The notes: generated by a model from the letters alone, not told the origin. A DNA stretch of 64,000 bases from Candidatus Oxydemutatoraceae bacterium (GCA_965218975.1 OZ244717.1:800001-864000), one strand, 5' to 3'. Shown: positions 25,406 through 41,991, numbered from the stretch's first letter. Numbers and translations: made by a program.

Positions 25406-26584
25406 GTGATTCGGTGTCTTTTTCTTTCCAACGGTGCGCTGCCGAGTAAGAGATTTATACGCATCTCATTGCTTGGTATTTTTCTGTTGTTGCCGTTCTC
25501 GGTAACCGCTTACGAGGCAATCGTTCCCGACCCACCGCTGTTGTCGGCAGAAAGTTATATTTTGATGGACTATCACACGGCGATGGTACTGGCAGAAAAG
25601 CGTGCGGATGCGGCACATTCCCCGGCTAGTCTGACTAAAGTGATGACCGCCTATGTCGTATATCAAGCGTTGGAAGACGGATTGATTCATTTAAGCGATC
25701 AAGTAAATATCAGCCGGAAAGCACGCCAAGCAATCGGTTCGCGAATGTTTGTTGAGCAAGGATCAAAGGTTGCGGTTGAAGATCTGTTACTCGGTGTTGT
25801 TGTCCAGTCGGGTAACGATGCGAGTATTGCGCTTGCCGAATATGTCGGCGGATCAGAGGCGGGATTTGCCGACCTGATGAATGCGCAGGCAAATCGATTA
25901 GGTTTGACCAATTCTTATTTCATGAATGCCACCGGTTTGTCTGAAAAAAACCACTATATGACCGCACGCGATAATGCAATATTGATCCGGTCTCTGATTC
26001 AAAAATTTCCGACACATTACCGTGTTTATGCGCAAAAGGAATATATCTATAACAACATCCGTCAGTACAACCGCAATCAGCTGTTGTGGAGAAATCTAGG
26101 TGTTGACGGAGTGAAGACCGGCTATACCGAAGCTGCCGGCTATTGTTTTTCGGCATCGGCAAAACGTGACGGGATGCGTTTAATCGCCGTTATTTTAGGT
26201 AGTTCCGGCGAACAGCAGCGACTAGTAGATGCCGAGCGCCTATTTAACTACGGCTTTCGGTTTTATAAGACTTATCGCCTGTATCAAGCGGGCAAATCTC
26301 TGCATCAATTGCGTGTTTGGGGTGGTAAGCAAAAGTATGTTCGTGTAGGAGTGCCGCAAGATTTTTATGTTACGGTGCCGCGCAACGCGACCGGTCAACT
26401 AGAGGTCGAGAAAACTATTCATCAAGCGGTTGATGCGCCGGTAAACTATCATCAGCCCCTTGGCGTTGTTGCTGTTAATGTGACGGAAAAATCCTCGCAG
26501 TCAATGCCTTTAGTAGCGTTAACCCCAGTGCAAAAAGGTAGTTGGATCATTCGTTTGTATGATGCTTTCTTAAAACTATTTTGA
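25406..26584 (+). CDS. dacA: D-alanyl-D-alanine carboxypeptidase (PBP5/6)
   Basis: PASLTKVMT (SxxK), QSGNDA, GVKTGYT; C-terminal PBP5 domain. Confidence 0.92.
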   Translation: MIRCLFLSNGALPSKRFIRISLLGIFLLLPFSVTAYEAIVPDPPLLSAESYILMDYHTAMVLAEKRADAAHSPASLTKVMTAYVVYQALEDGLIHLSDQVNISRKARQAIGSRMFVEQGSKVAVEDLLLGVVVQSGNDASIALAEYVGGSEAGFADLMNAQANRLGLTNSYFMNATGLSEKNHYMTARDNAILIRSLIQKFPTHYRVYAQKEYIYNNIRQYNRNQLLWRNLGVDGVKTGYTEAAGYCFSASAKRDGMRLIAVILGSSGEQQRLVDAERLFNYGFRFYKTYRLYQAGKSLHQLRVWGGKQKYVRVGVPQDFYVTVPRNATGQLEVEKTIHQAVDAPVNYHQPLGVVAVNVTEKSSQSMPLVALTPVQKGSWIIRLYDAFLKLF

Positions 26585-27441
26585 ATCGATTGTCTGCGAT
26601 CGCCTATTTGAACGGCAAATTTTTCCCACTGGAAGAATGTCGTATTTCGGTATTGGACCGTGGGTTTCTATTTGGCGATGGGATCTATGAAGTCATTCCG
26701 GTATATAACCGCAGTGTATTTGAATCCGAGTTGCATTTTGAACGGATGCGCCGAGGGCTTGAAAGAATAGGTATTGCTGTGCCACAGACTGATGCGAAAT
26801 GGCTGGATATTTTTGCCCGCTTAATCCGCGACTCGAAGTGTGACAACTTAGCAATTTATTTACAGATAACCCGCGGTGTCGCACCGCGTAGCCATTACGT
26901 TGTCGATCATATACAACCGACTACATTCGCAATGACTATGGCACTTAGTCGCACGGCAGATGATGTTCTGTGTCAGGGAACCACTGCGATTACCGCCGAA
27001 GATACACGTTGGCATCATTGCGATATCAAAACAATCAGCTTGGCGGCAAATGTCTTATTGCGTAAAAAGGCAGTTGAGGCAAATGCTTACGAGGTCATTT
27101 TGTTTCGTGATAAAGTTTTAACCGAAGGTGCGGCAGCAAATGTCCTTATTGTTTTCGGCACATCTGTTGCTGAGGCGCAGCTTGCGACTCCTCCTAAGGA
27201 TAATTGGATTTTGCCGGGTATCACCCGTGAGGTGGTAAAGCGTCTCGCCGTTGAGCATTCGATTCCGTTTGTTGAAAGACGAATTAGCGAAGAAGAAATA
27301 AAAGCGGCGGACGAAGTATGGCTGACGAGCTCTACCAAAGAAATTTTACCGGTGGTTTCAATTGACGGCCGAACGATTGGCGGCGGAAAACCCGGAGTGG
27401 TACGAGCGCAGTTTAGCCGGTGGTTAAATGCGCTTAAATGA
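26581..27441 (+). CDS. dat: D-amino acid aminotransferase (class IV PLP)
   Basis: DRGFLFGDGIYEV, YLQITRG, DIKTISL, ILPGITR; follows dacA. Confidence 0.88.
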   Translation: MNRLSAIAYLNGKFFPLEECRISVLDRGFLFGDGIYEVIPVYNRSVFESELHFERMRRGLERIGIAVPQTDAKWLDIFARLIRDSKCDNLAIYLQITRGVAPRSHYVVDHIQPTTFAMTMALSRTADDVLCQGTTAITAEDTRWHHCDIKTISLAANVLLRKKAVEANAYEVILFRDKVLTEGAAANVLIVFGTSVAEAQLATPPKDNWILPGITREVVKRLAVEHSIPFVERRISEEEIKAADEVWLTSSTKEILPVVSIDGRTIGGGKPGVVRAQFSRWLNALK

Positions 27442-27581
27442 CCGGGGGATCAGCACAACCCTATTGTCGGCAGCGATTACGAATATCACTGATTGCGGTG
27501 GCGGTGATCATTGCTCCGGACCGTGCTCAACTTGGGGTGTTCTCGATGGGAATTATATACATTCCTAGACAAAGGGGGCAC

Positions 27582-27610
27582 TCGACAAACTCTATCACGC
27601 TTTGTAGTAT
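27582..27610 (+). promoter_or_regulatory. Putative sigma70 promoter for first passenger gene
   Basis: TCGACA-17 bp-TAGTAT, with the ATG 6 nt downstream (possibly leaderless). Confidence 0.4.
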
Positions 27611-27616
27611 CGTCGC

Positions 27617-28174
27617 ATGCCGAAAACATTCTTGGAGAAAACAAAGGGCATATTACGGTTCTTTGGTTGGGAAGCCTTTCAAGCGTGGGTACTCCCATCA
27701 TTATCTGTACCGGTGGCTGTCGTGATAGGTTGGTTGTCATCAGCCCCGTGGTTTTTAGTTTATCTAGGAGCACTGTTCGCCTTTGCAATGACCGCGACTG
27801 GCCTCTTGCGATTTAGTGAATGGCGATTCAAAGTCACGGCACATCACAAGCTGTCATTCTCAAAAATTCTGTTACAGAAAGTGGTATCGGACGAAGGACA
27901 GATGCATAGTATCAAATTTGGTTTTTATCTGTACAACGCAGCCTCTTTCCCTATTGAGTACATCATTCAAGAGATAAGAACCGATTTAGATGGAGAGTAC
28001 TCGCCGAACAAGGAGCATGAGAAGGATGCTTATGTGATTCCGGCATTTGCGTTTGGTTGGTTTTACAATCATGCCATCCCTTTAAGACTTGATCATCCTA
28101 CAGGGAAGTTTGTAGAGGGTGGGCTTCATGCCAAACTCAAGTATGGTCGCCCACAAAACCCTGTCTGCGAATAG
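27617..28174 (+). CDS. Hypothetical membrane protein (IS passenger; possibly truncated)
   Basis: 185-aa ORF with two N-terminal hydrophobic segments. The frame stays open for 24 more codons after the TAG, to a TAA ending at 28249. Confidence 0.6.
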   Translation: MPKTFLEKTKGILRFFGWEAFQAWVLPSLSVPVAVVIGWLSSAPWFLVYLGALFAFAMTATGLLRFSEWRFKVTAHHKLSFSKILLQKVVSDEGQMHSIKFGFYLYNAASFPIEYIIQEIRTDLDGEYSPNKEHEKDAYVIPAFAFGWFYNHAIPLRLDHPTGKFVEGGLHAKLKYGRPQNPVCE

Positions 28175-28301
28175 GAGATCAAGCAAAAGATTATCGTGAA
28201 GTTTAATAATGACGGCGATGTAGAGAACATAGAGTGTTACGACTTATAATCGTCACGAATCTATCAAGGGATGGCCCTTTGCATTTCAGAACTCAAAACT
28301 C

Positions 28302-28330
28302 TTGACACCAACTCCTATTTTTGGTAGATT
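28302..28330 (+). promoter_or_regulatory. Putative sigma70 promoter of transposase copy 1
   Basis: TTGACA-17 bp-TAGATT, followed by AAGGAG before the start codon. Confidence 0.6.
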
Positions 28331-29308
28331 ACTAGACAACAGATAACGACCAAATAAGGAGTGAAGCACATGCCGAAGAAAGCCCCTGGAAAGCATTACC
28401 GAAACGGAATCAGCCTTGTTGAACTGATTGACCGATTCCCTAATGAAGCCTCAGCGCGAGCATGGTTTGAATCTATTCGATGGGCGAAAGGCAGGACGTG
28501 TCCCTACTGTGCATCCGAACACACCAACCCCGTCCCGAACGACAATCCCATGCCTTACCATTGCACGACCTGTCGGAAGTATTTCAGCGTGAGAACGGGA
28601 ACGGTGATGCAATCCAGTAATCTTCCCTTGAGAAAGTGGGTGATCGGGTTCTATCTGATGTCCACAAACCTCAAAGGCGTGTCCAGCATGAAACTGCATC
28701 GGGATTTGAAGGTGACGCAAAAGACGGCGTGGATGATGGCTCAAAAGATTCGGCAAGCATGGGATATGGACAAGGCCTCATTGACTGGGCCGGTCGAAGT
28801 GGACGAGACCTATATCAGGGGGAAAGAGAAGAACAAACACCAGAGCCGGAAGCCGAAGAAACTCAGAGGAACCACGGGGAAGCAGGCCGTCTTGGGGCTG
28901 CGTTCACGTGAGGGTCAGATCACGGCCAAGCCGATTCCAGGCACGGATAGGCAGACATTGTGGGGCGAGATTCAACAGCATGTCGAAAAAGGGAGTACCC
29001 TCTACACGGATGATCATGGAGCCTATCGTGGGTTTGGACTTGTCTGATTACGACCATCATGTGGTCAATCATTCAGCCAAGCAGTATGTGGACGGACAGG
29101 CCCACACCAACGGGATTGAGTCCTTTTGGGCCTTACTGAAACGTGGCTACCACGGGACGTTTCACAAAATGAGTGTCAAACACCTTCATCGTTACGTGAA
29201 TGAATTTGCCGGACGCCATAACATTCGTGAATCAGACACGATTGAACAGATGACATTCTTGGCTCAAGGTGTGGTGGGGAAACGTCTGCCCTATAGGGAG
29301 TTGGTGGC
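28303..29308 (+). repeat. 1,006-bp direct repeat copy 1 (promoter + IS1595 transposase); copy 2 at 31112-32117
   Basis: Direct comparison at offset 2809; at least six substitutions seen. Confidence 0.95.
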
Positions 29309-29312
29309 GTAA
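28361..29312 (+). pseudogene. IS1595-family transposase, frameshifted (copy 1)
   Basis: Zn ribbon CPYC...CTTC, VEVDETY, YTDD, HTNGIESFW, YVNEF. Split into ORFs 28361-29047 and 28908-29312 at CGTGGGTTTGGAC (~29027-29039). Confidence 0.9.
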
Positions 29313-29329
29313 TTGGAACATTTCGTAAG

Positions 29330-30316
29330 ATGAAGAATAACCCACTGCCACGACTCGATAGATCACCAGAATTGCGGAGCAAATTGTTGCCGTATTGTCG
29401 TCTTCAATTAGGAGATATTTGGGTGGATAAAGTGCGTGGTCATCGTGTTGGTTGTCTTGATGCTTCAAATCGTATGGCTGTAGACAGTATTATGGCTGGG
29501 GAACAGGCACAGTTGGCGATTCATGATCCACCGTATAATCTTGCAGCGTTTGAAAAAAGATCAATAACAGAATTTATATCTTGGTGTCAGACATGGGTAT
29601 CTCATACTTACAACGTATTAGCTCCTAATTCTTCGTTATATGTCTGGATCGGTGCTGATCAAAATGATGGATTTCAACCTTTACCCGATTTTGTTCTCAT
29701 GATGCGTGATCAATCTTTTCGTCCACGAAGTCTCATTACGATGAGAAATCAACGAGGATACGGTACTCAAAAAAATTGGATGGCTATTCGCCAAGAGTTA
29801 CTTTATTACACAAAAGGAAATCCTCATTTCTATGTTGATGCCGAATACACAGATATCCCCAAAATCCTTCGTGGGTATTATAAAGAAGTCAATGGTAAGA
29901 CTACGGAAAATCTGGAACGAAGTCGTTCAGATACAATTCGAGCAGGTAATGTTTGGGTTGATGTTCAGCAAATATTTTATCGAATGGAGGAAAATGTTTC
30001 AGGGTGCTACGCACAAAAGCCCATAAAGTGTATTGATAGAATTGTTCGAGCAAGTTCTTCCCCTCATGATGTCGTGATTGATTTTTTTGCACACTCAGGA
30101 ACGACTTTGATTGTATCTGAATTGCTCAACCGAAAATCCTTTACATTTGATGTTGATCCGATCTATGCCGAAATAACAATTCGTCGCCTTGAGCGATTTC
30201 GCTCTACGGGTCTCACGGGATGGCAAAATGGGAATCCTTTTGAGAAGGATGTACCCCACATCGGACTTGGGGAAATAATCATCCCTGAAACTGATTTCCA
30301 AGATACACTTTTTTGA
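29330..30316 (+). CDS. Site-specific DNA methyltransferase (N6A/N4C, beta class)
   Basis: Catalytic DPPY precedes the SAM-binding DFFAHSGTT; QKP motif. Confidence 0.9.
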   Translation: MKNNPLPRLDRSPELRSKLLPYCRLQLGDIWVDKVRGHRVGCLDASNRMAVDSIMAGEQAQLAIHDPPYNLAAFEKRSITEFISWCQTWVSHTYNVLAPNSSLYVWIGADQNDGFQPLPDFVLMMRDQSFRPRSLITMRNQRGYGTQKNWMAIRQELLYYTKGNPHFYVDAEYTDIPKILRGYYKEVNGKTTENLERSRSDTIRAGNVWVDVQQIFYRMEENVSGCYAQKPIKCIDRIVRASSSPHDVVIDFFAHSGTTLIVSELLNRKSFTFDVDPIYAEITIRRLERFRSTGLTGWQNGNPFEKDVPHIGLGEIIIPETDFQDTLF

Positions 30317-30326
30317 GTTTTATCTT

Positions 30327-31136
30327 ATGGAGCGTTTAGAAAAGGTGCTCAATGGCTTGTTGATGCAGCTTTCTAATGAGAGCGACATCAGAGACAGACT
30401 CAGCAATCTTAAATCGGTCTATCCATTCAATGAGTATGAATACATTATATCCCATCTGCTTGCAATGAATGTTCTCACCTTGGATGGTTATTTTGAACTC
30501 CGAGATGAATACATGGAAAGAAATATGTTTCTTTATATTTTTGAAATCAGTGCACCTCGAACTTTTGGAGAATCATGGGCTCAAGGGCATTTGAAAGAGC
30601 TAGTGCAAAGTTTAAAAAAACCATCAAAGAAAATAGACCCAAATTATTCCAGTCAATATGATTTTTATTTAGATGGAATTCGCATTGAAGTAAAAGCCTC
30701 ACGTGTAGTTGATGCGAATTCCGATGAACCGCTTTATGTGAAAGCCCTTTCGTCAGATTCAAAGAAAGAATTCTGGATGAACTTTCAACAAGTGAAACCA
30801 GATTGCTGTGATGTTTTTGTTTGGATCGCTGTTTGGCGTGATGTCATTCAGTATTGGGTATTATCGTCTAATGAAGTCAAAAGAAACCCATATTATTCAC
30901 AAGGCCAACATCGTGGAAATGTCGGTGAAGGTCAATTACATGTCAAACAAGATAATATCGAGGAATTTAAAGACTATAGGGCACAATCTAACAAGATTGA
31001 GGAATCAATTCGTCGTGCATATGTTCGACAAAAAGGAATAACAATGAGCTATGTAAAGCCACAAGATGTTGTCAGTCCACAAGAGCGGTGGAAACTTAGT
31101 CACGTCCTCTATGACACCAACTCCTATTTTTGGTAG
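30327..31136 (+). CDS. Putative PD-(D/E)xK restriction endonuclease; C-terminus fused to a fragment of another gene
   Basis: YDFYLDGIRIEVKAS nuclease-like motif; follows an MTase. Most of the last ~35 aa derive from the 5' region of the gene at 34049, the rest from the transposase promoter region. Confidence 0.62.
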   Translation: MERLEKVLNGLLMQLSNESDIRDRLSNLKSVYPFNEYEYIISHLLAMNVLTLDGYFELRDEYMERNMFLYIFEISAPRTFGESWAQGHLKELVQSLKKPSKKIDPNYSSQYDFYLDGIRIEVKASRVVDANSDEPLYVKALSSDSKKEFWMNFQQVKPDCCDVFVWIAVWRDVIQYWVLSSNEVKRNPYYSQGQHRGNVGEGQLHVKQDNIEEFKDYRAQSNKIEESIRRAYVRQKGITMSYVKPQDVVSPQERWKLSHVLYDTNSYFW

Positions 31137-31169
31137 ATTACTAGACAACAGATAACGACCAAATAAGGA

Positions 31170-32121
31170 GTGAAGCACATGCCGAAGAAAGCCCCTGGAA
31201 AGCATTACCGAAACGGAATCAGCCTTGTTGAACTGATTGACCGATTCCCTAATGAAGCCTCAGCGCGAGCATGGTTTGAATCTATTCGATGGGCGAAAGG
31301 CAGGACGTGTCCCTACTGTGCATCCGAACACACCAACCCCGTCCCGAACGACAATCCCATGCCTTACCATTGCACGACCTGTCGGAAGTATTTCAGCGTG
31401 AAAACGGGAACGGTGATGCAATCCAGTAATCTTCCCTTGAGAAAGTGGGTGATCGGGTTCTATCTGATGTCCACAAACCTCAAAGGCGTGTCCAGCATGA
31501 AACTGCATCGGGATTTGAAGGTGACGCAAAAAACGGCGTGGATGATGGCTCAAAAGATTCGGCAAGCATGGGATATGGACAAGGCCTCATTGACTGGGCC
31601 GGTCGAAGTGGACGAGACCTATATCGGGGGGAAAGAGAAGAACAAACACCAGAGCCGGAAGCCGAAGAAACTCAGAGGAACCACGGGGAAGCAGGCCGTC
31701 TTGGGGCTGCGTTCACGTGAGGGTCAGATCACGGCCAAGCCGATTCCAGGCACGGATAGGCAGACATTGTGGGGCGAGATTCAACAGCATGTCGAAAAAG
31801 GGAGTACCCTCTACACGGATGATCATGGAGCCTATCGTGGGTTTGGACTTGTCTGATTACGACCATCATGTGGTCAATCATTCAGCCAAGCAGTATGTGG
31901 ACGGACAGGCCCACACCAACGGGATTGAGTCCTTTTGGGCCTTACTGAAACGTGGCTACCACGGGACGTTTCACAAAATGAGTGTCAAACACCTTCATCG
32001 TTACGTGAATGAATTTGCCGGACGCCATAACATTCGTGAATCAGACACGATTGAACAAATGACGTTCTTGGCGCAAGGTGTGGTGGGGAAACGTCTGCCC
32101 TATAGGGAGTTGGTGGCATGA
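31170..32121 (+). pseudogene. IS1595-family transposase, frameshifted (copy 2)
   Basis: Near-identical to copy 1 with the same frameshift; has DETYIGG. Stop overlaps the start of the next MTase (ATGA). Confidence 0.9.
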
Positions 32122-33092
32122 AAGAAAGAGCACCAAGAAATCAAACATTGACATGTAGTTTGGAGGAAAAAACGCATTTGTCTGCTAAAATCCTTTATGC
32201 GGATAATCTGAATCATGGTGAGAATGTTGGTGAAAAAATCATTTGTGGTGACATATTTAAGGTTGTAGAAAACCTTCCCCAAAAGTTTGTTGATCTATTG
32301 ATTTTGGACCCCCCCTACAATCTCTCGAAAAACTATAATGGGCATCTTTTCAAAGAAAAAGATAAAGTCGAATACCAAGAATGGTTCGAGCGTGTTGTTT
32401 TGCTTTTAACTCCGACACTGAAATCAACTGCAACCGTATATGTTTGCTCTGATTGGAAAACCTCTATTCTTATTGTTCCAATCCTCGAAACATATTTTCA
32501 TGTTCGCAACCGAATCACTTGGGAGAGAGAAAAAGGACGTGGAGCGAGATCGAATTGGAAAAACAACACTGAGGACATCTGGTTCTGTACGGTTTCCAAT
32601 GATTATTACTTCGATGTGGCTTCTGTAAAATTGAAGCGAAAGGTACTTGCACCATACAGGGTTAACGAGAAACCTAAAGATTGGTATCAGGACGAAAATG
32701 GGAATTATCGTCTCACTTACCCTTCTAACATTTGGACTGATGTAACTATTCCCTTTTGGTCAATGCCTGAAAATACTGATCACCCTACTCAGAAACCTGA
32801 AAAACTCATCGCCAAACTTGTTCTTGCTAGTTCAAAAGAGGGAGATTTTGTATTCGATCCATTTTTGGGTAGTGGAACGACAACCACGATTGCTAAAAAA
32901 CTCGGAAGGAATTTTTGTGGGATAGACATCAATGAGGAGTACTGCTGCTGGGCAGTTAAACGTCTAAAAATGGCCGCTTCCGATAGGACAATTCAAGGAT
33001 ATGTAGACGGCGTTTTTTGGGAGAGAAATTCTCTTGCTGAGCAGCCTGTGAACGTAGCACAATCTTTAAAACAAGAAAAACTTTTGTTGTGA
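32118..33092 (+). CDS. Site-specific DNA methyltransferase (N6A/N4C, beta class)
   Basis: LDPPYN, HPTQKPEKL, DPFLGSGTT, GIDINEEY. Confidence 0.92.
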   Translation: MKERAPRNQTLTCSLEEKTHLSAKILYADNLNHGENVGEKIICGDIFKVVENLPQKFVDLLILDPPYNLSKNYNGHLFKEKDKVEYQEWFERVVLLLTPTLKSTATVYVCSDWKTSILIVPILETYFHVRNRITWEREKGRGARSNWKNNTEDIWFCTVSNDYYFDVASVKLKRKVLAPYRVNEKPKDWYQDENGNYRLTYPSNIWTDVTIPFWSMPENTDHPTQKPEKLIAKLVLASSKEGDFVFDPFLGSGTTTTIAKKLGRNFCGIDINEEYCCWAVKRLKMAASDRTIQGYVDGVFWERNSLAEQPVNVAQSLKQEKLLL

Positions 33093-33757
33093 AATCATCT
33101 TTTTATTACGACGGTCATTATCAAGATGTGGCTGATAAAATTAGAGACTATATCAATGCCTCTCCCGATTTTCTTTCTCCTCAAACAATTGGGAGTCCTA
33201 GAGCTACCGGAGATGCAATAGAATCACTGATTTCAGAAAAGTTTGATACGTTTTTGGGTGACTGGTGTGTTGAATATTCAAGTGATTTTGCTCGTAGGGC
33301 CATGGCTGATCTTGCCTTCACCGATAAGGAACAATTCTATTCTGTTGTTGATGTAAAGACACATAGAGAGAACACGGTATTTAACATGCCGAATCTGACA
33401 TCCGTAGAAAGATTAGCAAGGTTTTATAAAGCGGATGTCAATGTGTTTTCGTTGATCATGGTGAAATATATCATCGACAAGACTCATTTTAGAGCTACGG
33501 AAGTCATTTATTCTCCTATTGAATATCTGGACTGGGGGTGTTTAACGGTAGGCGCATTAGGATGGGGACAGATTCAAATAGCCAATTCCAATTACATTAA
33601 AATAAATCATGGGTATTCACGTAAAAAATGGATGCTTCAATTTTGTGATGTCATGCTCGATTTCTATCCCAAAGAAATTCTGAAAATAAAGGATCGTACA
33701 GGGAGATTTGACACGGTGAAAGCCTATTGGGAAGCAAAAGAAGATGTGTGGAATTGA
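33089..33757 (+). CDS. Putative PD-(D/E)xK restriction endonuclease
   Basis: GDAIE...MADLAF...VVDVKT resembles a PD-(D/E)xK core; GTGA overlap with the upstream MTase. Confidence 0.6.
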   Translation: MKSSFYYDGHYQDVADKIRDYINASPDFLSPQTIGSPRATGDAIESLISEKFDTFLGDWCVEYSSDFARRAMADLAFTDKEQFYSVVDVKTHRENTVFNMPNLTSVERLARFYKADVNVFSLIMVKYIIDKTHFRATEVIYSPIEYLDWGCLTVGALGWGQIQIANSNYIKINHGYSRKKWMLQFCDVMLDFYPKEILKIKDRTGRFDTVKAYWEAKEDVWN

Positions 33758-33808
33758 GAGCATGGAATTCTGTCTTGAATAAGGACTTTGATCAAGTAAC
33801 AATTCATT

Positions 33809-33973
33809 ATGAAACCCCCTAAAAAGACCACCAAACCCAAACGTCCCCGTGGTCGTCCAGTGATACGAATCATCGAGAAGATTGACGCGCCACCCGAAGA
33901 GATTGTCAAAGCCGTCTTTCGGGTGGCGGACCGAAAGCAGAGTGATCGGAATAATGGTAGTCGTGGCACTTGA
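33809..33973 (+). CDS. Small basic protein with AT-hook-like KRPRGRP motif (54 aa; absent from the ORF track)
   Basis: Manual translation: MKPPKKTTKPKRPRGRPVIRIIEKIDAPPEEIVKAVFRVADRKQSDRNNGSRGT. Confidence 0.55.
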   Translation: MKPPKKTTKPKRPRGRPVIRIIEKIDAPPEEIVKAVFRVADRKQSDRNNGSRGT

Positions 33974-33977
33974 GCGT

Positions 33978-34006
33978 TTGACACATTCAAAGCGTAACTG
34001 TACTAT
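33978..34006 (+). promoter_or_regulatory. Putative sigma70 promoter for last passenger gene
   Basis: TTGACA-17 bp-TACTAT. Confidence 0.55.
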
Positions 34007-34048
34007 CATTTCTGGATGTTTCGTCAGGGGCAGCGAAAAGGAATAACA

Positions 34049-34342
34049 ATGAGCTATGTAAAGCCACAAGATGTTGTCAGTCCACAAGAGCGGTGGAAAC
34101 TTAGTCGCGTCCTCTATGACGGCGGAGAGGGTGAGTGGTCTGCCGCAACAGGGTCGTGGAAGAACGACGAGACGGGGGAGGGGAAGGTTCTGGCTATTCG
34201 CTGGAATGGAGAGGGGGAGAATGCAATAGGGCACCCACAATCGTCCGGCCATGCCGTATGGTTTATCGTTCCCGACAAATTGGCGTGCGTCTTACGAGTA
34301 GTGATTAAAGTGATTGCTCTTCTGTCGAAGCGATTAAAGTGA
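34049..34342 (+). CDS. Hypothetical protein ('gene X', IS1595 passenger)
   Basis: AAAGGA RBS before the ATG at 34049; sequence includes SP..RW..VLYDGG..W..LAIRWNG..GHP..WFIVP. Partial copies at 31031-31115 and 36333-36457. Confidence 0.7.
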   Translation: MSYVKPQDVVSPQERWKLSRVLYDGGEGEWSAATGSWKNDETGEGKVLAIRWNGEGENAIGHPQSSGHAVWFIVPDKLACVLRVVIKVIALLSKRLK

Positions 34343-34360
34343 TTGATTTTCTGTCGAAGC
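34303..34360 (+). repeat. 29-bp tandem repeat x2 just inside the IS1595 right end
   Basis: GATTAAAGTGATTGCTCTTCTGTCGAAGC followed by GATTAAAGTGATTGATTTTCTGTCGAAGC. Confidence 0.8.
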
Positions 34361-34463
34361 CGTGAAGAATTATGTCTAGAAATGTATATAATTCCCTTCT
34401 CGATCTAGCTAGCCTCTCAAGCCATCATCATGATGCGATGATGATAACACTGTAGCGAATCGG

Positions 34464-34796
34464 TCAAATATTCTTTGAGTTGAATCTGCTTAGTCTTTTG
34501 AAATTTTCCGGAATGCCGATATCCTCCCATATTCCGGTGTATTGTTCGCCGCTGACCCGATTTGTTTCAATCGCAGGTTTCAGCACCTCGGTTAGCTGAA
34601 ACGGCCGTTGCGATTGCGGTTCAAATAATGCTGCGCGGTAATAGCCGATTCCAGAGAAAGTCAAGCGCAAGTCCGAATGCGGATGATTCATACAAACGGT
34701 ACCATTTTTCAAATGAAAATCCCCCTGACGATGGTGAGGCGGATTAGGTACCAAAATCAGATACGCGAGGCATTGTTCGGGTAGAGTAATTGGTTT
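34464..34796 (-). pseudogene. Duplicated 3' fragment of murU (part of the TSD)
   Basis: Identical to the C-terminal part of the gene at 36579-37256; cut off by the IS end at 34797. Confidence 0.88.
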
Positions 34797-36332
34797 CTTG
34801 ACTTCGTAGGTTTTGACCTTTGGGCAAAAAATAAATCCTTTATTATCATAGGGTTACCCGGACGCTGCCGAAAAACCCTATTGTAGTGCCCCCAGGCTTG
34901 TTTTCACTTGGATTTAGGGTTATCATTCGGGTCTATGTACTTGCGTGAAAAATATGATCCCGAACGTGGCCGCACTCGCTTGCAGATTGTACGTTCCGTG
35001 CGCACTGCCGATGGTCCCCGTCAGCGTGTGGTGCGGCATATCGGCACTGCCGACAGTCCCGAGCAGCTTGCATCTTTGCGCAAGCTCGGCGAGGTCACCT
35101 TGGAAGAGCTGCGCCAAGCCGGTACAGCACAGCAATCGCTGTTCACACCAAAGCAGTACGCGGATCTCGCAGCTGAGGCACGGCGCGCACCGCGTTTGGC
35201 GCGCTTCGGGGTAGATCTTGCCGAATGCCGTGAGGAGATGCGGCTGATACTTGGGGTGCGCGAGGCGTTCACGCAGATTTATTCGCACTTGGGTTGGAAC
35301 CAGGTGTTGGGGCGCGGCGCACAGTAGCGAACCGCATCCTGCGCGAGCTGGTACTGGCGCGTATCGCACAGCCGCAGAGCAAGCGCGCTACGGTGTGCGA
35401 GCTCGAACGAAGCGGCGTTTCGCTCAATCTCGACCGGGTTTACCAGACTATGGATCACCTTGAGGAGGCGGTGATCGCACGCATCCGGGAACAGTCTCAT
35501 CAGGCGGCACAAAAGTTGTATGATCAGCCCCTCAAGGTGTTCTTCTTTGATTGCACGACCCTGTACTTCGAGAGCGAGCAAGAGGACCCGTTGCGCGCGA
35601 AAGGTTATAGTAAGGACGGCAAGCCGCACCGCTGCCAGGTGTTACTGGCACTGATGACGACCTGCGACGGTCTGCCGGTGGACTACGCACTGTTGCCGGG
35701 CAACACCTTTGAGGGCAAAACCTTGATGCAGGCAGTGACAAGTCTGCAACAGAGACATCCGGGTGCTGTATTTACAGTAGTGGCCGATGCGGCGCGTTGG
35801 GACGGCCTGCGCGCAATCATCGCACACGGCAACGAGGAGATGGCGCCAAAGGAATTGCTGTCGCAGTACCGTCGGTTGTGGGAAGTAGAACATTGCTTTC
35901 GCACTAACAAGCATGACCTTTGCATCCGCCCGATCTTTCACTGGAAGCCGCGGCGTATCCAGGCGCACATTGCGATCTGCTATATGGCCTTCTGCTGCTT
36001 GCAGCAGCTGCGCCGGCGGCTCAAAGCGCTAGGCTTCCCGATGAGCGCGGAGCGGGTCCGGCGCGAGCTCGACACCTTGCAGTTGAGCATCTTGGCACAT
36101 ACCGACACACAGAAGCGGTATGCGATGCCGAGCCGCGCGAGCGCAGACGCCAACAGGATCTACCGTAGTGTCGGCCTGAAATGGAACGAAGCTCCGTTCC
36201 CGCTTCCCGACAAGTCACGCCCTGGGGGAAGCTGAGCGCGGAGGGCTACAAACAACACCGTAATGTAGTGCCCTTGAGAATCCTGAAGGCAATAATATCA
36301 ATCACTTACGAGACAAAACCTACGAAGTCAAG
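34797..36332 (+). mobile_element. IS1634-family insertion sequence (defective)
   Basis: 19-bp perfect TIRs CTTGACTTCGTAGGTTTTG / CAAAACCTACGAAGTCAAG, IS1634-type transposase, long flanking duplication. Confidence 0.9.
34935..36235 (+). pseudogene. IS1634-family transposase, frameshifted and probably internally deleted
   Basis: FFDCTTLYFE, GYSKDGK, PGNTFE, VVADA, YRRLWEVEHCFR..K, IRPIFHW. Frameshift at the G-run ~35309-35312. VVADA runs directly into ARWDG, where a long region is expected. Confidence 0.85.
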
Positions 36333-36578
36333 AGAATCCGCTTGGTCATCCAATTTCCCGCTCTCGTCCCGTATGGTTTATCGTTCCCGACAAATTGGCG
36401 TGCGTCTTACGAGTAGTGATTAAAGTGATTGCTCTTCTGTCGAAGCGATTAAAGTGATTGATTTTCTGTCGAAGCCGTGAAGAATTATGTCTAGAAATGT
36501 ATATAATTCCCTTCTCGATCTAGCTAGCCTCTCAAGCCATCATCATGATGCGATGATGATAACACTGTAGCGAATCGG

Positions 36579-37256
36579 TCAAATATTCTTTGAGTTGAAT
36601 CTGCTTAGTCTTTTGAAATTTTCCGGAATGCCGATATCCTCCCATATTCCGGTGTATTGTTCGCCGCTGACCCGATTTGTTTCAATCGCAGGTTTCAGCA
36701 CCTCGGTTAGCTGAAACGGCCGTTGCGATTGCGGTTCAAATAATGCTGCGCGGTAATAGCCGATTCCAGAGAAAGTCAAGCGCAAGTCCGAATGCGGATG
36801 ATTCATACAAACGGTACCATTTTTCAAATGAAAATCCCCCTGACGATGGTGAGGCGGATTAGGTACCAAAATCAGATACGCGAGGCATTGTTCGGGTAGA
36901 GTAATTGGTTTGGGTTGCCAATCCGTATAAATGTCGCTGTTTATTACCAGCCATGGACTATCGCCGAGCAAAGGCAGCGCTTTGCGAATTCCGCCACCGG
37001 TTCCCAGTCGTTGATCCCCTTCATCCGACCAGCGGATACGTACACCATAACGATTGCCGTCGCCTAAATCATTCATAATTTTTGTGCGCAAATGAGAAAC
37101 ATTGATTACAATCTCATTGAATTGGGCTTGTTTAAGTCGTCGGATATGTCTTCCAATTAAAGTTTCCCCACCGATTTTTAACAGAGGTTTGGGCGTGGTA
37201 TCAGTCAAAGGTCTGAGCCGTTCGCCGCGTCCGGCAGACAGAATCATCGCTTTCAT
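36579..37256 (-). CDS. murU: N-acetylmuramate alpha-1-phosphate uridylyltransferase
   Basis: MKAMILSAGRGERLRPLTDTTPKPLL, GTGGGI, VPNPPHHRQGDF; downstream of amgK. Start set at the ATG at 37256. Confidence 0.88.
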   Translation of the reverse strand: MKAMILSAGRGERLRPLTDTTPKPLLKIGGETLIGRHIRRLKQAQFNEIVINVSHLRTKIMNDLGDGNRYGVRIRWSDEGDQRLGTGGGIRKALPLLGDSPWLVINSDIYTDWQPKPITLPEQCLAYLILVPNPPHHRQGDFHLKNGTVCMNHPHSDLRLTFSGIGYYRAALFEPQSQRPFQLTEVLKPAIETNRVSGEQYTGIWEDIGIPENFKRLSRFNSKNI

Positions 37257-38227
37257 TTCTTGCTTGGCAGCTGACGTATCAATTCGCATACATCCGCAAA
37301 TTCCGGATCATGCTTCAAACCATCAGTAATGTAGCGGAGAGTGTGTGGAATGTCTTTTAAATAACCGGCTTTATTGTCACGATGATATAAACGCGCAAAA
37401 ATGCCGCTTGCTTTGAAATGCCTTTGTGCCCCCATTAAGTTGAAGCGATGCTTGAAAGTTTCAGAGGTGAAATTACTTGTTGAATAATTGGGCGATCGTT
37501 CCTGAAAATAGCTAACCCATCCGTCAATCTTATCTGGCGACCAAGCAATGTAGCAATCTTTGAGTAGCGATACCAAATCATACGTTATCGGGCCGGCCAC
37601 TGCATCTTGGTAATCTAGTACGCCAATTGTATCTTCTGCTTCAATCAGCAGTAAGTTACGCGAATGATAGTCGCGATGAATAAATACCGCAGGTTGTGTC
37701 GCCGCATTTTCCGCAAGTTTTTTGAATGCGGTTTCAAAGATCCGCCGGTGACGTGTTCCCAATTCGATTCTCAGATGTTTAGCGCAATACCATTGCGGAA
37801 ATAAACGCATTTCATCCATTAACGAGGTCTCGTCAAATAGCGGCAGCCCGTTAAAGTCTGCGGTTTGAATTTTCAGCAACGCATCAATTGCTTTACGATA
37901 AAGCCGGTCGGCATTTTTTTCGTTTAAGCAATTTAAGAATAGTGTGTCGCCGAGGTCATCTAGTAATAAAAAACCACATTGAATGTTTTGTGAATGAATA
38001 GCCGGGACACGAACGCCGGCTTGCATCAGACGCTGCGTAACATCAATAAAACCGGTGCAGTCTTCTTTCGCCGGCGGAGCGTCCATTAGAATATAGCATC
38101 CTGCGTCGCAGACAATTCTGAAGTAACGTCTGAAACTTGCATCATTCGTTAAAGGAACAAATTCATGCAGCGAGTGTCCGAGTGTTCCTGTAAGCCAACG
38201 CTTTGCCAATTCTTCTCTATTTTGCAT
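37253..38227 (-). CDS. amgK: Anomeric MurNAc/GlcNAc kinase (APH family)
   Basis: DASFRRYFR, MDAPP, HRDYHSRNL, DYQDAVAGP, YDLVSLLKDCY; paired with murU. Confidence 0.88.
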   Translation of the reverse strand: MQNREELAKRWLTGTLGHSLHEFVPLTNDASFRRYFRIVCDAGCYILMDAPPAKEDCTGFIDVTQRLMQAGVRVPAIHSQNIQCGFLLLDDLGDTLFLNCLNEKNADRLYRKAIDALLKIQTADFNGLPLFDETSLMDEMRLFPQWYCAKHLRIELGTRHRRIFETAFKKLAENAATQPAVFIHRDYHSRNLLLIEAEDTIGVLDYQDAVAGPITYDLVSLLKDCYIAWSPDKIDGWVSYFQERSPNYSTSNFTSETFKHRFNLMGAQRHFKASGIFARLYHRDNKAGYLKDIPHTLRYITDGLKHDPEFADVCELIRQLPSKK

Positions 38228-38265
38228 AAAAGGCTGTTCCGGTTCAAAAACGATAGTATTATAGT

Positions 38266-40062
38266 GTGCGGATTGAACGATTTATTGTGATAGATTTTCA
38301 AATCAACGTAGAAAGTAGCGATACTTTACATTCTCTTTTCCAAAAACGTGTCAAAAAATCTCCTGACGCTCCGGCTTACTGTCAGTTTAATCCGTCTTCA
38401 GACATGTGGAAAACCTACACTTGGCACGAGTGTTCCGAGCAAGTCGCGCGGTATCGGCAGGCAATGCTGAGAGAAGGTTTAACCGCTGGTGATCGAGTTG
38501 CAATGATGTTGCACAATTGTATCGAATGGGTAGTTTTTGATCAGGCGGCGTTGAGTTTGGGCCTAGTAACTGTTCCTCTGTTTAGCGAAGATAATGCGAA
38601 TAGCTGTGCTTATATTCTGCGCGATGCCGGGGTACGTTTATTATTGGTTGGGAATCAACGTCAGTTAGAGAAAATTCAATCGCAAAGGGAATTTGCGACA
38701 GACTTAAGTAGAGTGGTTTGCTGCGAGACTTTGACGACTTGCGGGAATAGCAGTGTCGTATGTCTTGCCGATTGGCTCGCTGCATCCGATGTCCGAGCAA
38801 GCGAAGCCGACTGTTTTACAGGAGAAGAAACTTCTGCAATATCTGCCGACACATTGGCGACATTGGTTTATACATCGGGCACCACCGGACAGCCTAAAGG
38901 CGTGATACTTACGCACAAAAATATTGTTTCAAATGTTCGATTCGTCAGCCGAATATTTGATTTTCACTCGGATGATCTGTTTCTTTCTTTTTTGCCTTTG
39001 TCGCACATTTTTGAACGAGTTGCGGGTTATTACATGACGATGTTGTTCGGTTCTCGCGTTGTTTTTGTGCGGTCGATTGCCAAGCTGCAGGAAGATCTTT
39101 GCCGGCATCGTCCCACAGTATTGTTATCGGTGCCAAGAATTTACGAACGCATCCATACAAAATTACGACAGAAGTTTTCGTTACCACCCCTGCGTTTATT
39201 GTTACGGTTATGCGTCGCAATCGGTTATAGACGTTATCGGCGCATGCAAATAGGGAAGCCGATATATTGGTTAAAACCGGCATGGTGGGTTTGCGATAAA
39301 ATTGTTGCCGAAAAAATACGTGCAATCCTTGGTGGCAGAATTCGTTGCGCCGTCGTGGGGGGAGCGCCGATGCCGGCGGAAATTGCGCACATCTTTCTTG
39401 CTTGCGGTGTTCCGATTTATCAAGGGTACGGTTTGACCGAAGCGTCGCCGGTGGTTGCCGTCAACCGACCGCAGAACAATTTACCTGAGAGCATCGGTCC
39501 TCCTATCCCCGAGATAGAAGTTCGGATAGATGAGCGGCATGAATTGCTGACACGTAGTGATTGTGTGATGCAAGGGTATTGGGGTTTGCCCGAGGCGAGC
39601 AAGCAGGCAATTGATAAACATGGGTGGTTGCACACAGGCGATATGGCAAGTATGGATCAAGAAAAAAGGCTGTTTATTACCGGACGGATTAAAGAAATTA
39701 TTGTGATGAGCAATGGTGAGAAAGTGCCGCCGGTAGATATCGAGATGGCAATTACATCGGCAGGACTGGTTTCGCAGGCGATGGTTTATGGAGAAGGTCG
39801 CCCTTTTTTAATTGCTTTGGTAGTGCCGGTCGAGGAAATGATAGGATATGAGGATACGGTGACACTCAGTGCGGCACTGAGAAAAGCAATCGCAAAAGAG
39901 TTAAAAAATTTCCCCGTGTATGCGCGTATTCGCCGTGTACTGATTGTGCAAGCGCCTTGGACAGTTGAAAATGGCATGTTAACACCGACTTTGAAATTAA
40001 AGCGCGCATCAATTATTGCCGCGCACCAAAATGAGATCGAAGCGGTTTATCGTGCGTTTTAG
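38266..40062 (+). CDS. Long-chain-fatty-acid--CoA ligase (AMP-dependent synthetase)
   Basis: YTSGTTGQPKG, GYGLTE, WLHTGD, LTPTLKLKR. Confidence 0.9.
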   Translation: MRIERFIVIDFQINVESSDTLHSLFQKRVKKSPDAPAYCQFNPSSDMWKTYTWHECSEQVARYRQAMLREGLTAGDRVAMMLHNCIEWVVFDQAALSLGLVTVPLFSEDNANSCAYILRDAGVRLLLVGNQRQLEKIQSQREFATDLSRVVCCETLTTCGNSSVVCLADWLAASDVRASEADCFTGEETSAISADTLATLVYTSGTTGQPKGVILTHKNIVSNVRFVSRIFDFHSDDLFLSFLPLSHIFERVAGYYMTMLFGSRVVFVRSIAKLQEDLCRHRPTVLLSVPRIYERIHTKLRQKFSLPPLRLLLRLCVAIGYRRYRRMQIGKPIYWLKPAWWVCDKIVAEKIRAILGGRIRCAVVGGAPMPAEIAHIFLACGVPIYQGYGLTEASPVVAVNRPQNNLPESIGPPIPEIEVRIDERHELLTRSDCVMQGYWGLPEASKQAIDKHGWLHTGDMASMDQEKRLFITGRIKEIIVMSNGEKVPPVDIEMAITSAGLVSQAMVYGEGRPFLIALVVPVEEMIGYEDTVTLSAALRKAIAKELKNFPVYARIRRVLIVQAPWTVENGMLTPTLKLKRASIIAAHQNEIEAVYRAF

Positions 40063-40098
40063 GTTATCGCCCCGGCATATTACAAGTACAATAATGCG

Positions 40099-40776
40099 AT
40101 GAAACACAAAGGTTGCTTTTTTGCCGGCGTTGCTTACTTTTCATTGGTAAGTTTGATTCCGGTCGTATCGGCGACTCAAGACAGTCCGCATCCGGTCTTC
40201 GACGTTACCGAAGAAAAGTATCGTGCGCCGATTGATTTGACATCGGAATCTCTTGAAGATTTGCTCGCATTAAAAGAGTTTTATTTACGCGAAATGAAAA
40301 TTTTGATGCAGGCGGTGGAAACTAAAACCGATCAAAAAAAATTATTTGATGCGTTACTCGAATATGATCTCAAGCGGTTAGAGATTATTCAGGTCATTCC
40401 GAAAATTGTCCGAGTCTATGGCATCCGCGGCGAGCTAATGCAAAGTTTGTTCAAATACCGTGAAACCATTCAGCATATATATGATGATTATCATCCGCAG
40501 CTAGAGACACTTGAGGATTACAAAGCATACGATTTTCGTATAGGTATGGCGTATGCGTCGATGTTTGCAACGATTATGAACACCGATCATGAGCTGTATC
40601 AACGACTACGTAATGATATGACAAACAAAACGACAACTATCGGCGACTATGTAGAAAGTTTGGATCAATCATATATTAACGTTGAAAGGGTTAACTCCGA
40701 AGTCAGGGAATTTCATCTAGTGCGGCAAATTGACAAAGAATTGGAGCGAATTAATCAGGAAATAGAAGAGCGTTAA
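40099..40776 (+). CDS. Hypothetical exported helical protein
   Basis: 225-aa ORF with an N-terminal signal-peptide-like segment (..PVVSA-TQ); no motif recognised. Confidence 0.65.
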   Translation: MKHKGCFFAGVAYFSLVSLIPVVSATQDSPHPVFDVTEEKYRAPIDLTSESLEDLLALKEFYLREMKILMQAVETKTDQKKLFDALLEYDLKRLEIIQVIPKIVRVYGIRGELMQSLFKYRETIQHIYDDYHPQLETLEDYKAYDFRIGMAYASMFATIMNTDHELYQRLRNDMTNKTTTIGDYVESLDQSYINVERVNSEVREFHLVRQIDKELERINQEIEER

Positions 40777-40871
40777 TGTTTTATTTTGTAAGCGCTGCCG
40801 AACAAGTTTAAGGATATTTTCGATATCGATATCCGATCATTCGCAACAAGTAATTTTCTTTTCCGAAGCAA

Positions 40872-40998
40872 CAGCGGTCGCTTGAATCAAGCGGTCGGTG
40901 TGCCGTTGCAGGCATTTCTTGTATTGTCTCCTATTCTTTGTATTTTCTTTGTGAAAATTTAACCTGTCCAACCTAATTCGGTGGCGATGTAATTAATT
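40872..40998 (+). repeat. Degenerate long direct repeat (TSD), left copy; right copy at 58784-58941
   Basis: CAGCGGTCGCTTGAATCA...AATTAATT on both flanks. The left copy lacks 31 bp and has several substitutions; it includes the last 40 nt of ppc (40959-40998). Confidence 0.85.
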
Positions 40999-41111
40999 CT
41001 TGACTTCGTAGGTTTTGGCTCGTAAGTGATTGCCCATGAGTGATTGTGCCAATTGCCCTCAGGATTCTTAGGGGCATTACATTGACAGTGTTGCTTGCGA
41101 CGCTCCCGTGC

Positions 41112-41275
41112 TCAGCTTCCTCCAGGACGTGACTTGCTCGGAAGCGGGAACGGAGCTTCGTCCCATTTCAGACTGACGCTACGGTAAATCCTGTTGGCGT
41201 CCGCGCTCGCGCGGCTCGGCATCGCATACCGCTCGAGCATGTCGGTACGTACCAAGATGCTCAACTGCAAGGCGT
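41112..41275 (-). pseudogene. 3' remnant of IS1634-family transposase
   Basis: LQLSILVRTDMLERYAMPSRASADANRIYRSVSLKWDEAPFPLPSKSRPGGS matches the C-terminus of the ORF ending at 36235. Confidence 0.88.
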
Positions 41276-41630
41276 TGTATAGTGCCGGATACATATGGGA
41301 CTCACGGCACGATTCAAAAAGGTGACCGATATGCAATATCAACACATCAGCCACCGCATCAAAGGTTTCTATATGAGCCAATTTAGCTTCAAGAATGGAG
41401 GCTCATGAGCGCTCTAATCTTCAACAGAAATATGCTGCCCTCATTTATGGGAGGGTGTAACCCCCGAACGCATTCAAGCTCGGTCGCAGTACTTTGTACC
41501 GCTAGCGCCGACGTTATCGCCGCATTGGACTCAGTGCATTGCATGACCGCACCAAAGCGCCGTGCAAGAGGCGTCGGCGGGTCTGGCCGCAACCGATTCA
41601 GTGTGAAACCGTTTTGCGCTTGTTGCCGTG

Positions 41631-41680
41631 TTGTCGGCGGATTGTGCCGGATTGTCGGCGGATTGTGCCGGATTGTCGGC
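41631..41680 (+). repeat. 21-bp tandem repeat (TTGTCGGCGGATTGTGCCGGA) x~2.4
   Basis: Read directly from the sequence. Confidence 0.8.
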
Positions 41681-41690
41681 AAAGTGCCTG

Positions 41691-41991
41691 TCACCCATGA
41701 CGCGACTGGGTTCTGTCAACAAGCCCCAGCCCCGACGTCCTTGTCGGGTCGTTCACTGCTGAAAACCAATCGGTTTTCCGGGCGCGTCTCACCCATGACG
41801 CGACTGAGTTCTGTCAATGAGCGCCAGCCCCGACATCCTTGTCGAGCCGTTCACCGCTGAAAACCAATTGGTTTTCCGGGCGCGTCTCACCCATGATGAG
41901 ACTTGGTTCTGTCAATGAGCGCCAGCCCCGACGTCCTTGTCGAGTCGTTCACCGCTGAAAACCAATTGGTTTTCAGCGGTGCATCTCACCC
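41691..41991 (+). repeat. 98-bp tandem repeat x3, each unit with a GAAAACCAAT(T/C)GGTTTTC palindrome
   Basis: Units start at 41691, 41789 and 41887; the right-hand element has only one unit. Confidence 0.88.

Follow-up and report, generated by a model that had tools for sequence, protein, structure and literature searches.

Within a 64,000-nucleotide stretch from a Candidatus Oxydemutatoraceae bacterium (GCA_965218975.1 OZ244717.1:800001-864000, hereafter the window, with positions counted from its first letter), a transposase gene with its promoter occurs in two nearly identical copies, each followed by a different pair of genes of the restriction-modification (R-M) type. This arrangement raises the question which kind of unit holds the two copies and their neighbours together. 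A preliminary description of the locus had proposed an undescribed, integron-like scaffold, in which cargo is exchanged between the transposase and a downstream gene termed X. The analysis described here leads to another answer, namely that window 27548-34396 is very probably a single 6,849-bp transporter insertion sequence (tIS) of the IS1595 family.

Element ends and layout

The outer borders of the element are marked by terminal inverted repeats of 24 bp, both of which are present. The left one (IRL, GGGAATTATATACATTCCTAGACA, 27548-27571, plus strand) is complementary at 23 of 24 nt to the right one (IRR, TGTCTAGAAATGTATATAATTCCC, 34373-34396, minus strand), which aligns with the IRR found 3' of a small gene, orf54, in eight related elements. 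Directly outside both repeats the 8-mer TTCTCGAT occurs, on the left at 27540-27547 and, as a perfect match, on the right at 34397-34404. Target duplications of the IS1595 family have a length of 8 bp. Since matching 24-bp inverted repeats are flanked by TTCTCGAT on either side, it is concluded that 27548-34396 was inserted as one unit. The same family of 24-mers was found at the ends of all relatives described below, and a search with the 24-bp pattern returned 14 of 401 Nitrospiria genomes, compared to none for the reversed pattern used as control. The tIS would have transposed as a unit into intergenic DNA between an aminotransferase gene (26581-27441) and murU, and this insertion would have left the 24-bp terminal inverted repeats and the 8-bp target duplication.

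From left to right, the element comprises IRL, orf185, transposase, M1, R1, a fragment of X, transposase, M2, R2, orf54, X and IRR. Hence orf185, M1, R1, M2, R2 and X lie as passenger genes within the inverted repeats, which is the property that defines a tIS. The base composition is a mosaic, with a GC content of 45-47% in the host DNA, 52-53% in the transposase block and 36-42% in the R-M cargo. A DNA search of 60 host relatives returned no full copy of the element, the best match showing 73% identity over 207 nt.

The promoter-transposase block

In a self-comparison of 26000-42500, positions 28299-29308 and 31107-32117 showed an identity of 99.3% over 1,011 aligned columns, with the ungapped match starting at 28303 and 31112. 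The 2.08-Mb genome contains two full copies of this 1-kb repeat and, in addition, one distant relative of 190 nt. The identity ends with GTGGC|GTAA (29309/29310) in the first and GTGGC|ATGA (32117/32118) in the second copy, i.e. at the last codon of the transposase frame, just as the preliminary description had stated. Copy A (28299-29312, plus strand) comprises a promoter and a split IS1595-family transposase recognized by Pfam and NCBIfam, and its edges match the limits of similarity in eight relatives. Copy B (31112-32121, plus strand) comprises, according to the sequence comparison, the same frameshifted transposase behind a promoter with an altered -35 box (ATGACA). The halves of the open reading frame (ORF) carry the domains Zn_ribbon_IS1595 (PF12760) and DDE_Tnp_IS1595 (PF12762) and match the NCBIfam model transpos_IS1595 (NF033547), which characterizes the enzyme as a transposase with an N-terminal zinc ribbon and an ISXO2-like DDE domain.

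Both copies are split by the same 1-nt insertion, an extra G within GGG at 29030-29032 and 31839-31841. An alignment to intact homologues of 313 amino acids (aa) with 81-93% identity places the shift of the frame at ...GAYRG|LD. Since an independent contig of 1,006 letters from a public read run spans 28303-29308 with 0 gaps, the frameshift cannot be attributed to a slip of the assembly. A copy arising after this break cannot have been produced by its own enzyme. An intact autonomous transposase is missing from the element, and the genome holds no other close copy; nonetheless, the frameshift marks the inactivation of this copy and not its exclusion from the IS1595 family. Since both transposase copies are frameshifted, the element is most likely immobile today and persists as the vehicle of two putative Type II R-M systems.

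At the left edge of the block, a promoter of the form TTGACA-17-TAGATT (28302-28330) matches the consensus strongly, and a scan of 28300-34400 found no terminator-like site between transposase and cargo. The cargo is probably read from this transposase promoter, as is suggested by its packing against the transposase stop. The -10 box is overlaid by TAGATTACTAGACA (28322-28335), which resembles the inner half of the terminal inverted repeat (TACATTCCTAGACA, 27558-27571) and may be a candidate sub-terminal repeat for binding of the transposase.

The edges of the 1-kb block invite a further reading, in which a simple 1,006-bp insertion sequence (IS) inserted twice, each time just 5' of a resident R-M operon, resembling a composite transposon. 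An inverted repeat of 12-13 nt (TGACACCAACTCC / GGAGTTGGTGGCA) lies exactly at the block edges (28304-28315 with 29297-29309 and 31113-31124 with 32106-32118; pairs I6, I12 and I13), where it overlaps the -35 box and the last transposase codons, and the transposase frame extends to the very end of the block. The two closest relatives have retained this repeat (12-13 of 22 matches), whereas in more distant relatives it is found at background level. Neither for the window copies nor for eight relatives did the borders of the 1-kb block reveal a target duplication of 6-10 nt, and swapping the flanks creates none. The true inverted repeats and 8-bp duplications sit outside the blocks, which do not contain the 24-bp repeats themselves, and the one frameshift common to both copies argues against a second copy generated by its own enzyme once the frame was broken. 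Two separate insertions are regarded as very unlikely, and the composite transposon was rejected because the 1-kb blocks lack functional ends of their own, having neither 24-bp inverted repeats nor target duplications.

Relatives, conserved backbone and cargo diversity

A protein search of the 401 Nitrospiria genomes resulted in 8 loci in 7 genomes with 66-92% aa identity to the window transposase. These loci were enlarged as L135-L142 and, together with the metagenome contigs L074, L075, L076 and L098, represent 9 types of relatives in all. The closest intact transposases originate from Nitrospira-type metagenome bins, and the window host belongs to a class other than that of the Nitrospiria relatives. 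A plasmid collection contained distant IS1595 transposases only, all at <60% (best matches <42%) and labelled just 'IS1595 family transposase'.

The DNA similarity of the relatives to the window is limited to two blocks, one at 28294-29320 comprising promoter and transposase and one at ~33812-33933 comprising orf54. The backbone of the family consists of IRL, the promoter-transposase block, and orf54 directly followed by IRR. Passenger DNA occupies two slots, one from IRL to the promoter and one from the transposase stop to orf54. Perfect 8-bp target duplications were found in 8 of 9 testable elements out of 11 examined, the duplication not being testable for L141 and L074 (same site), which sit at contig ends.

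The right slot is empty in two of the nine types and filled in seven, with a DNA methyltransferase in six. In L141/L074/L075, orf54 begins directly after the transposase stop, and in L142 it begins ~10 nt after it. L137 carries one 113-aa gene of no known family, L135 an MT-A70 methylase and two small ORFs, L136 an N6_N4 methylase of 267 aa, L140 an N6_N4 methylase and two ORFs, L138 and L139 methylase-HNH fusions, and L076/L098 a methylase-like gene detected by tblastn only. The transposases of L135 and L136 are 91-92% identical to that of the window, yet they stand beside unrelated cargo. Apart from L138 with L139, no DNA similarity was observed from cargo to cargo. Measured from the end of the transposase stop, the first cargo gene begins between 17 nt upstream and 6 nt downstream in all seven cargo-bearing elements with ORF calls, and it overlaps or abuts the stop in L136, L137, L138, L139, L140 and window copy B.

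The left slot is absent in L140 and contains a 181-196-aa gene in L135, L138 and L139, a DUF3800 gene in L137, and other genes in L141 and L142. In the window it is occupied by orf185 (27617-28174, plus strand), a passenger gene outside any Pfam or NCBIfam family, which is related neither to the 181-196-aa gene just mentioned (hhalign probability 0.3%) nor to the genes found in this slot in L137, L141 and L142.

Altogether, the constant transposase with variable cargo at its stop, as described for the two window copies before, proved to be a property of the whole family: the cargo varies, is rich in methylases (6 of 9 types) and starts close to the stop, and 2 of 9 types are without cargo. The right flank of this scaffold, which had been assigned to X, consists of orf54 and IRR instead.

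Transposase-less pairs of the 24-bp inverted repeat, comparable to miniature inverted-repeat transposable elements (MITEs), were observed in Nitrospirales at L151 916-1523 (608 bp), L154 890-1523 (634 bp) and L161 1501-1883 (383 bp). Two of these pairs show a perfect 8-bp duplication, ATAACAAT, and the third shows TTTGTCAA/TTTGTAAA. Such MITE-like derivatives of 383-634 bp point to the ordinary life of an IS family. Furthermore, the insertion site of L136, L137, L138 and L139 lies in each case in the middle of a palindromic repeat of one kind (CCTCCTTACAAAGGAGG / CCTCCTTTGTAAAGAGG), and this shared type of palindrome suggests a preferred insertion target in these four genomes. An automatic search for inverted repeats on 29 of 34 metagenome loci (<=64% aa identity) returned noise only.

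Cargo genes of the window

M1 (29330-30316, plus strand; GC 36-42%) and M2 (32118-33092, plus strand) are assigned to the N6_N4 DNA methyltransferases by Pfam (PF01555, E 2.8e-29 and 2.7e-41, respectively) and are 26% identical to each other. M1 begins 17 nt past the transposase stop of copy A. For M2, the earlier reported overlap of its ATG with the transposase stop of copy B (ATGA) was found again in the sequence, and the GTG start of R2 (33089-33757, plus strand) overlaps the M2 stop in the same manner (GTGA). R1 (30327-31136, plus strand) and R2 showed no significant similarity when compared with each other.

R1 belongs to a family of ~5,300 homologues; the 120 that were listed have a length of 228-249 aa and identities of 70-97%. 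It has no Pfam or NCBIfam match, its profile found no counterpart among PDB sequences, and a D...EVK motif was recognized by eye only. R2 showed a weak match to residues 96-168 of HincII (E 0.037). R1 is regarded as a putative restriction endonuclease and R2 as a putative Type II restriction endonuclease. Of the distinct methyltransferase-nuclease pairs assigned to the two copies before, the methyltransferases are thus supported by Pfam, and the nuclease partners stay putative.

orf54 and gene X

The right part of the backbone is formed by orf54 (33809-33973, plus strand), a small basic gene product of 54 aa (KPKRPRGRP...IDAPPEEIVKAVF) whose gene adjoins IRR in all relatives. Its tblastn matches adjoin the transposase or the cargo in L129/L137, L132/L141, L133, L074, L075, L076, L098, L135, L136, L139 and L140, and in L138 it was found through the DNA alignment and an ORF call. 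In 8 of 8 aligned relatives, orf54 is followed within ~10-20 nt by TGTCTAGnAnTGTATATAAnTCCC, which equals the window IRR. The family is rare, with 13 representatives among 1.84 billion. It showed no Pfam or NCBIfam match, and the Atlas (score 0.86) assigned it to unnamed clusters only. As a guess, orf54 could act at IRR as a DNA-binding accessory or regulator.

Gene X (34049-34342, plus strand) encodes a conserved protein of 97 aa and is located between orf54 and IRR. A fragment of it at 31031-31115 (plus strand), which comprises 13 nt upstream and codons 1-24, duplicates 34036-34120 with 84 of 85 nt identical (one mismatch) and thereby covers the ribosome-binding site and the first 24 codons. 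Both units had been described as rejoining the start of X after their cargo. The shared stretch of 85 bp bears this out, and the direct rejoining does not hold for the second unit, in which a 278-bp stretch with orf54 separates R2 from X. A promoter-like site lies upstream of X at 33978-34006. The 20 homologues found belong to a family of 85-139 aa, in which the N-terminus MSYVKPQDV is conserved. The AlphaFold model (pLDDT 79.6) contains three strands and one helix. With regard to function, X gave no Pfam or NCBIfam match, no fold match in the PDB at E<=0.001 and unnamed Atlas clusters only.

In the surroundings of 39 X loci from other genomes, neither the N-terminal transposase ORF nor the inverted repeat of the element had a counterpart. 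The C-terminal transposase ORF was matched weakly over 36 aa at L061, at a distance of 6.4 kb and on the other strand, and at L046 a methylase-HNH gene lies directly upstream of X. In eight relatives of the element, the space between orf54 and IRR, occupied by X in the window, is empty. With 0 of 39 outside loci showing an adjoining transposase or the inverted repeat, X was rejected as the right flank of the scaffold. In contigs of the read run X6, which originates from another study, the end of orf54 is joined to the upstream region of X and an X fragment is joined to the IRR region. Based on these joints, X travels with some members of this tIS lineage.

The genes around X were surveyed in 96 of 183 extracted ORFs, with two from the upstream and one from the downstream side of each locus. 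At 14 of the 39 loci (L045, L048, L054, L055, L058, L060-L063, L066, L069, L070, L072 and L073; X at ~8001-8260 in most), the gene next downstream of X (~100 nt) encodes a PemK/MazF toxin; these loci are mostly from Acidobacteriota, and X often follows a fadB-like gene. X may be a candidate antitoxin-type partner of MazF.

The junction of R1 with the X fragment deserves separate consideration. The conserved part of R1 ends with ...AYVRQ at 31031, and its homologues continue for 3-9 variable residues and then stop. The R1 of the window has no stop of its own, and its frame reads through the 5' fragment of X into copy B. The end of R1 contains a run of five A's (31030-31034), within which one contig of a public run terminates at 31032. 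With four A's instead of five, R1 would end with ...RQKE-TAA, the stop lying four bases 5' of the X ATG. The closest R1 homologue among the 120 listed (97%) and the closest X homologue (73%) are both found on 12,396-bp contigs, and a further pair of R1-like and X-like homologues is found on 140,865-bp contigs. Since the homologues of R1 and X occur on contigs of the same sizes, the adjacency of R1 and X may be native and not a recombination joint.

Probable internal duplication and population polymorphism

At its left joint, copy B has the sequence CTCTATGAC|ACC, compared to ..CTTGAC|ACC in copy A and all eight relatives. The joint falls 2-3 nt within the conserved CTTGAC, whose first two bases (CT) are lost, so that the -35 box is changed from TTGACA to ATGACA. 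This joint and the left flank of copy A share the microhomology CTCT(A)TGAC with 8 of 9 nt. Based on the microhomology joint, the lack of an own target duplication and the common frameshift, the second transposase block appears to result from an internal duplication through an illegitimate joint and not from transposition. By illegitimate recombination at CTCT(A)TGAC, either two cargo variants of one element would have been joined or a segment would have been duplicated, with codon 24 of X on one side of the resulting joint and the left border of the transposase block on the other; the order of events in this two-block origin is one that we infer. The two units do not represent two independent slots; they lie in a single element with an internal duplication, a microhomology joint and a common frameshift.

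The window stretch is present in six public read runs, of which the contigs of four were compared. In the runs X5 and X6, some bins lack coverage, an observation that carries no weight in either direction. A read-contig joint 31032->33831 indicates that a segment of 2,798 bp (31033-33830; X fragment, transposase copy B, M2, R2 and the first 22 nt of orf54) is absent in part of the population. In X1, the contig depth was 105 in the flank, 98 for M1/R1, 61-63 for M2/R2 and 43.5 for the joint 31032->33831, and in X4 it was 8.9 for the M2/R2 path and 5 for the joint. Since the depths of the two paths sum up to that of the flank, ~40% of the population is estimated to be without the segment. Judging by its coordinates, this variant encodes an in-frame fusion of R1 with orf54 from residue 8 onward. 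A contig of 1,883 letters from X6 matches 32043-33925 (transposase end, M2, R2 and orf54) with 20 differences, and the X6 joint 32090->33880 looks like a cargo-less relative.

The presence of two haplotypes in the read contigs, with an M2/R2 depth of ~58% of the flank, could also arise if two strains with one R-M system each had been merged into a false tandem by the assembly. However, the depth of M1/R1 (98) equals that of the flank (105), which means that M1/R1 is also present in the cells that have M2/R2. In addition, an X4 contig of 436 letters crosses the joint of the X fragment and copy B (31072-31507) with 0 differences, from which it follows that the tandem form is real, and a contig of 35.9 kb runs into copy A. 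An artefact of this kind is considered scarcely credible.

Proposed exchange of cargo and points against a single element

Some observations weigh against the interpretation as a single IS1595-family tIS with an illegitimate internal duplication. L075 shows no target duplication, and the element is assigned at the level of the IS1595 family with no ISfinder subgroup (ISNwi1, ISPna2). The inner 12-13-nt repeat at the block edges is not accounted for by this interpretation, and the promoter scan as a whole was no richer than shuffled sequences (14 sites found vs 12.6 expected). The variant joint 31032->33831 is known as coordinates and not as letters, and the runs X1-X4 may be the source of the assembly itself and hence no independent support. 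Furthermore, nt 31032 is the breakpoint on the R1 side in the assembled form (R1 to X upstream region) as well as in the read variant (R1 to nt 23 of orf54). A simple one-step history for the origin of the two blocks could not be found, and none of the single deletions, insertions or crossovers considered fits without coincidence.

It is the double use of nt 31032 that mainly leaves a small chance to a specific exchange mechanism. In such a scenario, which we regard as improbable, the tIS lineage would have made repeated use of the transposase stop as the place at which modules with methylase or R-M genes are swapped, and the 2.8-kb module (X fragment, transposase, M2 and R2) would enter and leave at nt 31032. 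The swap could be driven by orf54, or else by the transposase through the inner 12-13-nt repeats. If true, these elements would be self-mobilising 'methylome shufflers' and not passive carriers.

The integron-like version of such an exchange, as originally proposed, would comprise a transposase-promoter platform and a cassette slot between the transposase stop and X, with a dedicated exchange in the absence of an integrase. It would agree with the differing cargo behind 91-99% identical transposases, the cargo starts at or a few nt from the transposase stop, the 2.8-kb cargo segment present or absent within one population with nt 31032 of R1 as joint in both forms, and orf54 as a conserved small basic protein of unassigned role. 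However, none of the ORFs of 27548-34396 contains the domain of an integrase or recombinase according to Pfam and NCBIfam, the missing integrase being in line with what had been noticed at first. When 10 left and 10 right edges as well as 9 orf54 regions were aligned, no conserved non-coding motif emerged at the cargo boundaries, and conservation was confined to the promoter, the coding parts and the inverted repeats. X is unlinked to the transposase or the inverted repeat in the 39 other X loci, and the joint of copy B cuts into the edge of the conserved block and looks illegitimate. Since the conserved blocks are coding or functional modules, selection on the modules alone would yield the same pattern. 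A dedicated integron-like exchange is accordingly judged quite unlikely, and the single tIS with an internal duplication is retained as the preferred reading.

Neighbouring features of the window

Beyond the right end, a 543-bp repeat with 100% identity (34254-34796 and 36369-36911) lies on both sides of an IS4-like element and contains the 3' end of X, the tIS IRR, the target duplication and the 3' part of murU. At this repeat the read depth is doubled (197 vs 105 in X1). The IS4-like element (34796-36333) has perfect 20-bp inverted repeats, a frameshifted DDE_Tnp_1 transposase and a GC content of ~60%, and leaves a murU fragment (34464-34754) and a full murU (36579-37289). Further downstream, three 98-bp tandem repeats were observed at 41686-41979, as well as long arrays of 642-bp and 396-bp repeats at ~47000-56000 in the region of a giant adhesin.

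Comparison with known systems and implications

Several implications follow from the described element. Compact IS1595 tIS provide a route for Type II R-M systems and orphan methylases between distant bacteria. The backbone stays constant, and the turnover of the methylase cargo outpaces the divergence of the transposase. For annotation, it has to be considered that the true ends of an element can lie kilobases outside the obvious transposase repeat, and orf54 together with the 24-bp inverted repeat is a good handle to find such elements. The presence and absence of the R-M module within one population represents a natural case of defence gene gain or loss.

The primary paper on the IS1595 family, by Siguier, Gagnevin & Chandler (2009), is cited in PMC11891212 and in the TnCentral preprint 10.1101/2021.05.26.445724. 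A tIS is described as an IS with passenger genes, and the IS1595 family is named in this context, in three reports (10.1101/2021.05.26.445724, PMC9330008, PMC11891212). The window element and the IS1595 tIS have in common the transposase with zinc ribbon and DDE domain, short terminal inverted repeats, the 8-bp duplication and passengers without a role in transposition. The lineage of the window differs by the conserved orf54 at the right end, two cargo positions and a cargo biased to methylases and R-M genes, and the window copy itself differs by the duplicated transposase block and the two complete, putative Type II methyltransferase-restriction gene pairs.

R-M genes in units with imperfect terminal inverted repeats and 8-bp duplications are described in the consulted sections of Furuta, Abe & Kobayashi 2010 (PMC2853133), where an R-M unit of Neisseria gonorrhoeae also holds a transposase-like gene (COG3677). 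As in the units covered there, the R-M genes of the window lie inside inverted repeats with 8-bp duplications. In contrast to those units, which appear in these sections as single cases with no described backbone, the backbone could here be traced over 9 types of relatives with changing cargo. The same sections (PMC2853133) contain a class of R-M insertions with long target duplications, in which direct repeats of >30 bp, single-copy at the empty site, enclose an insert with no other mobile element. The element resembles this class, as far as it is covered there, in that the segment of copy B, M2, R2 and orf54 lies between 85-bp direct repeats of the X start, i.e. of >30 bp. However, the insert comprises a transposase block here, and the read variant 31032->33831 is not the simple empty site of that model.

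Like an integron, the window element consists of a fixed platform bearing a promoter, followed by exchangeable genes that look promoter-less. Unlike an integron, it lacks a recombinase such as an integrase as well as sites resembling attI or attC, and it belongs to the elements of DDE transposition with inverted repeats and target duplication. The designation as integron-like is not supported. Instead of an undescribed system, the locus falls into the tIS class already known for the IS1595 family, of which it represents a new, unusually large and internally duplicated element.

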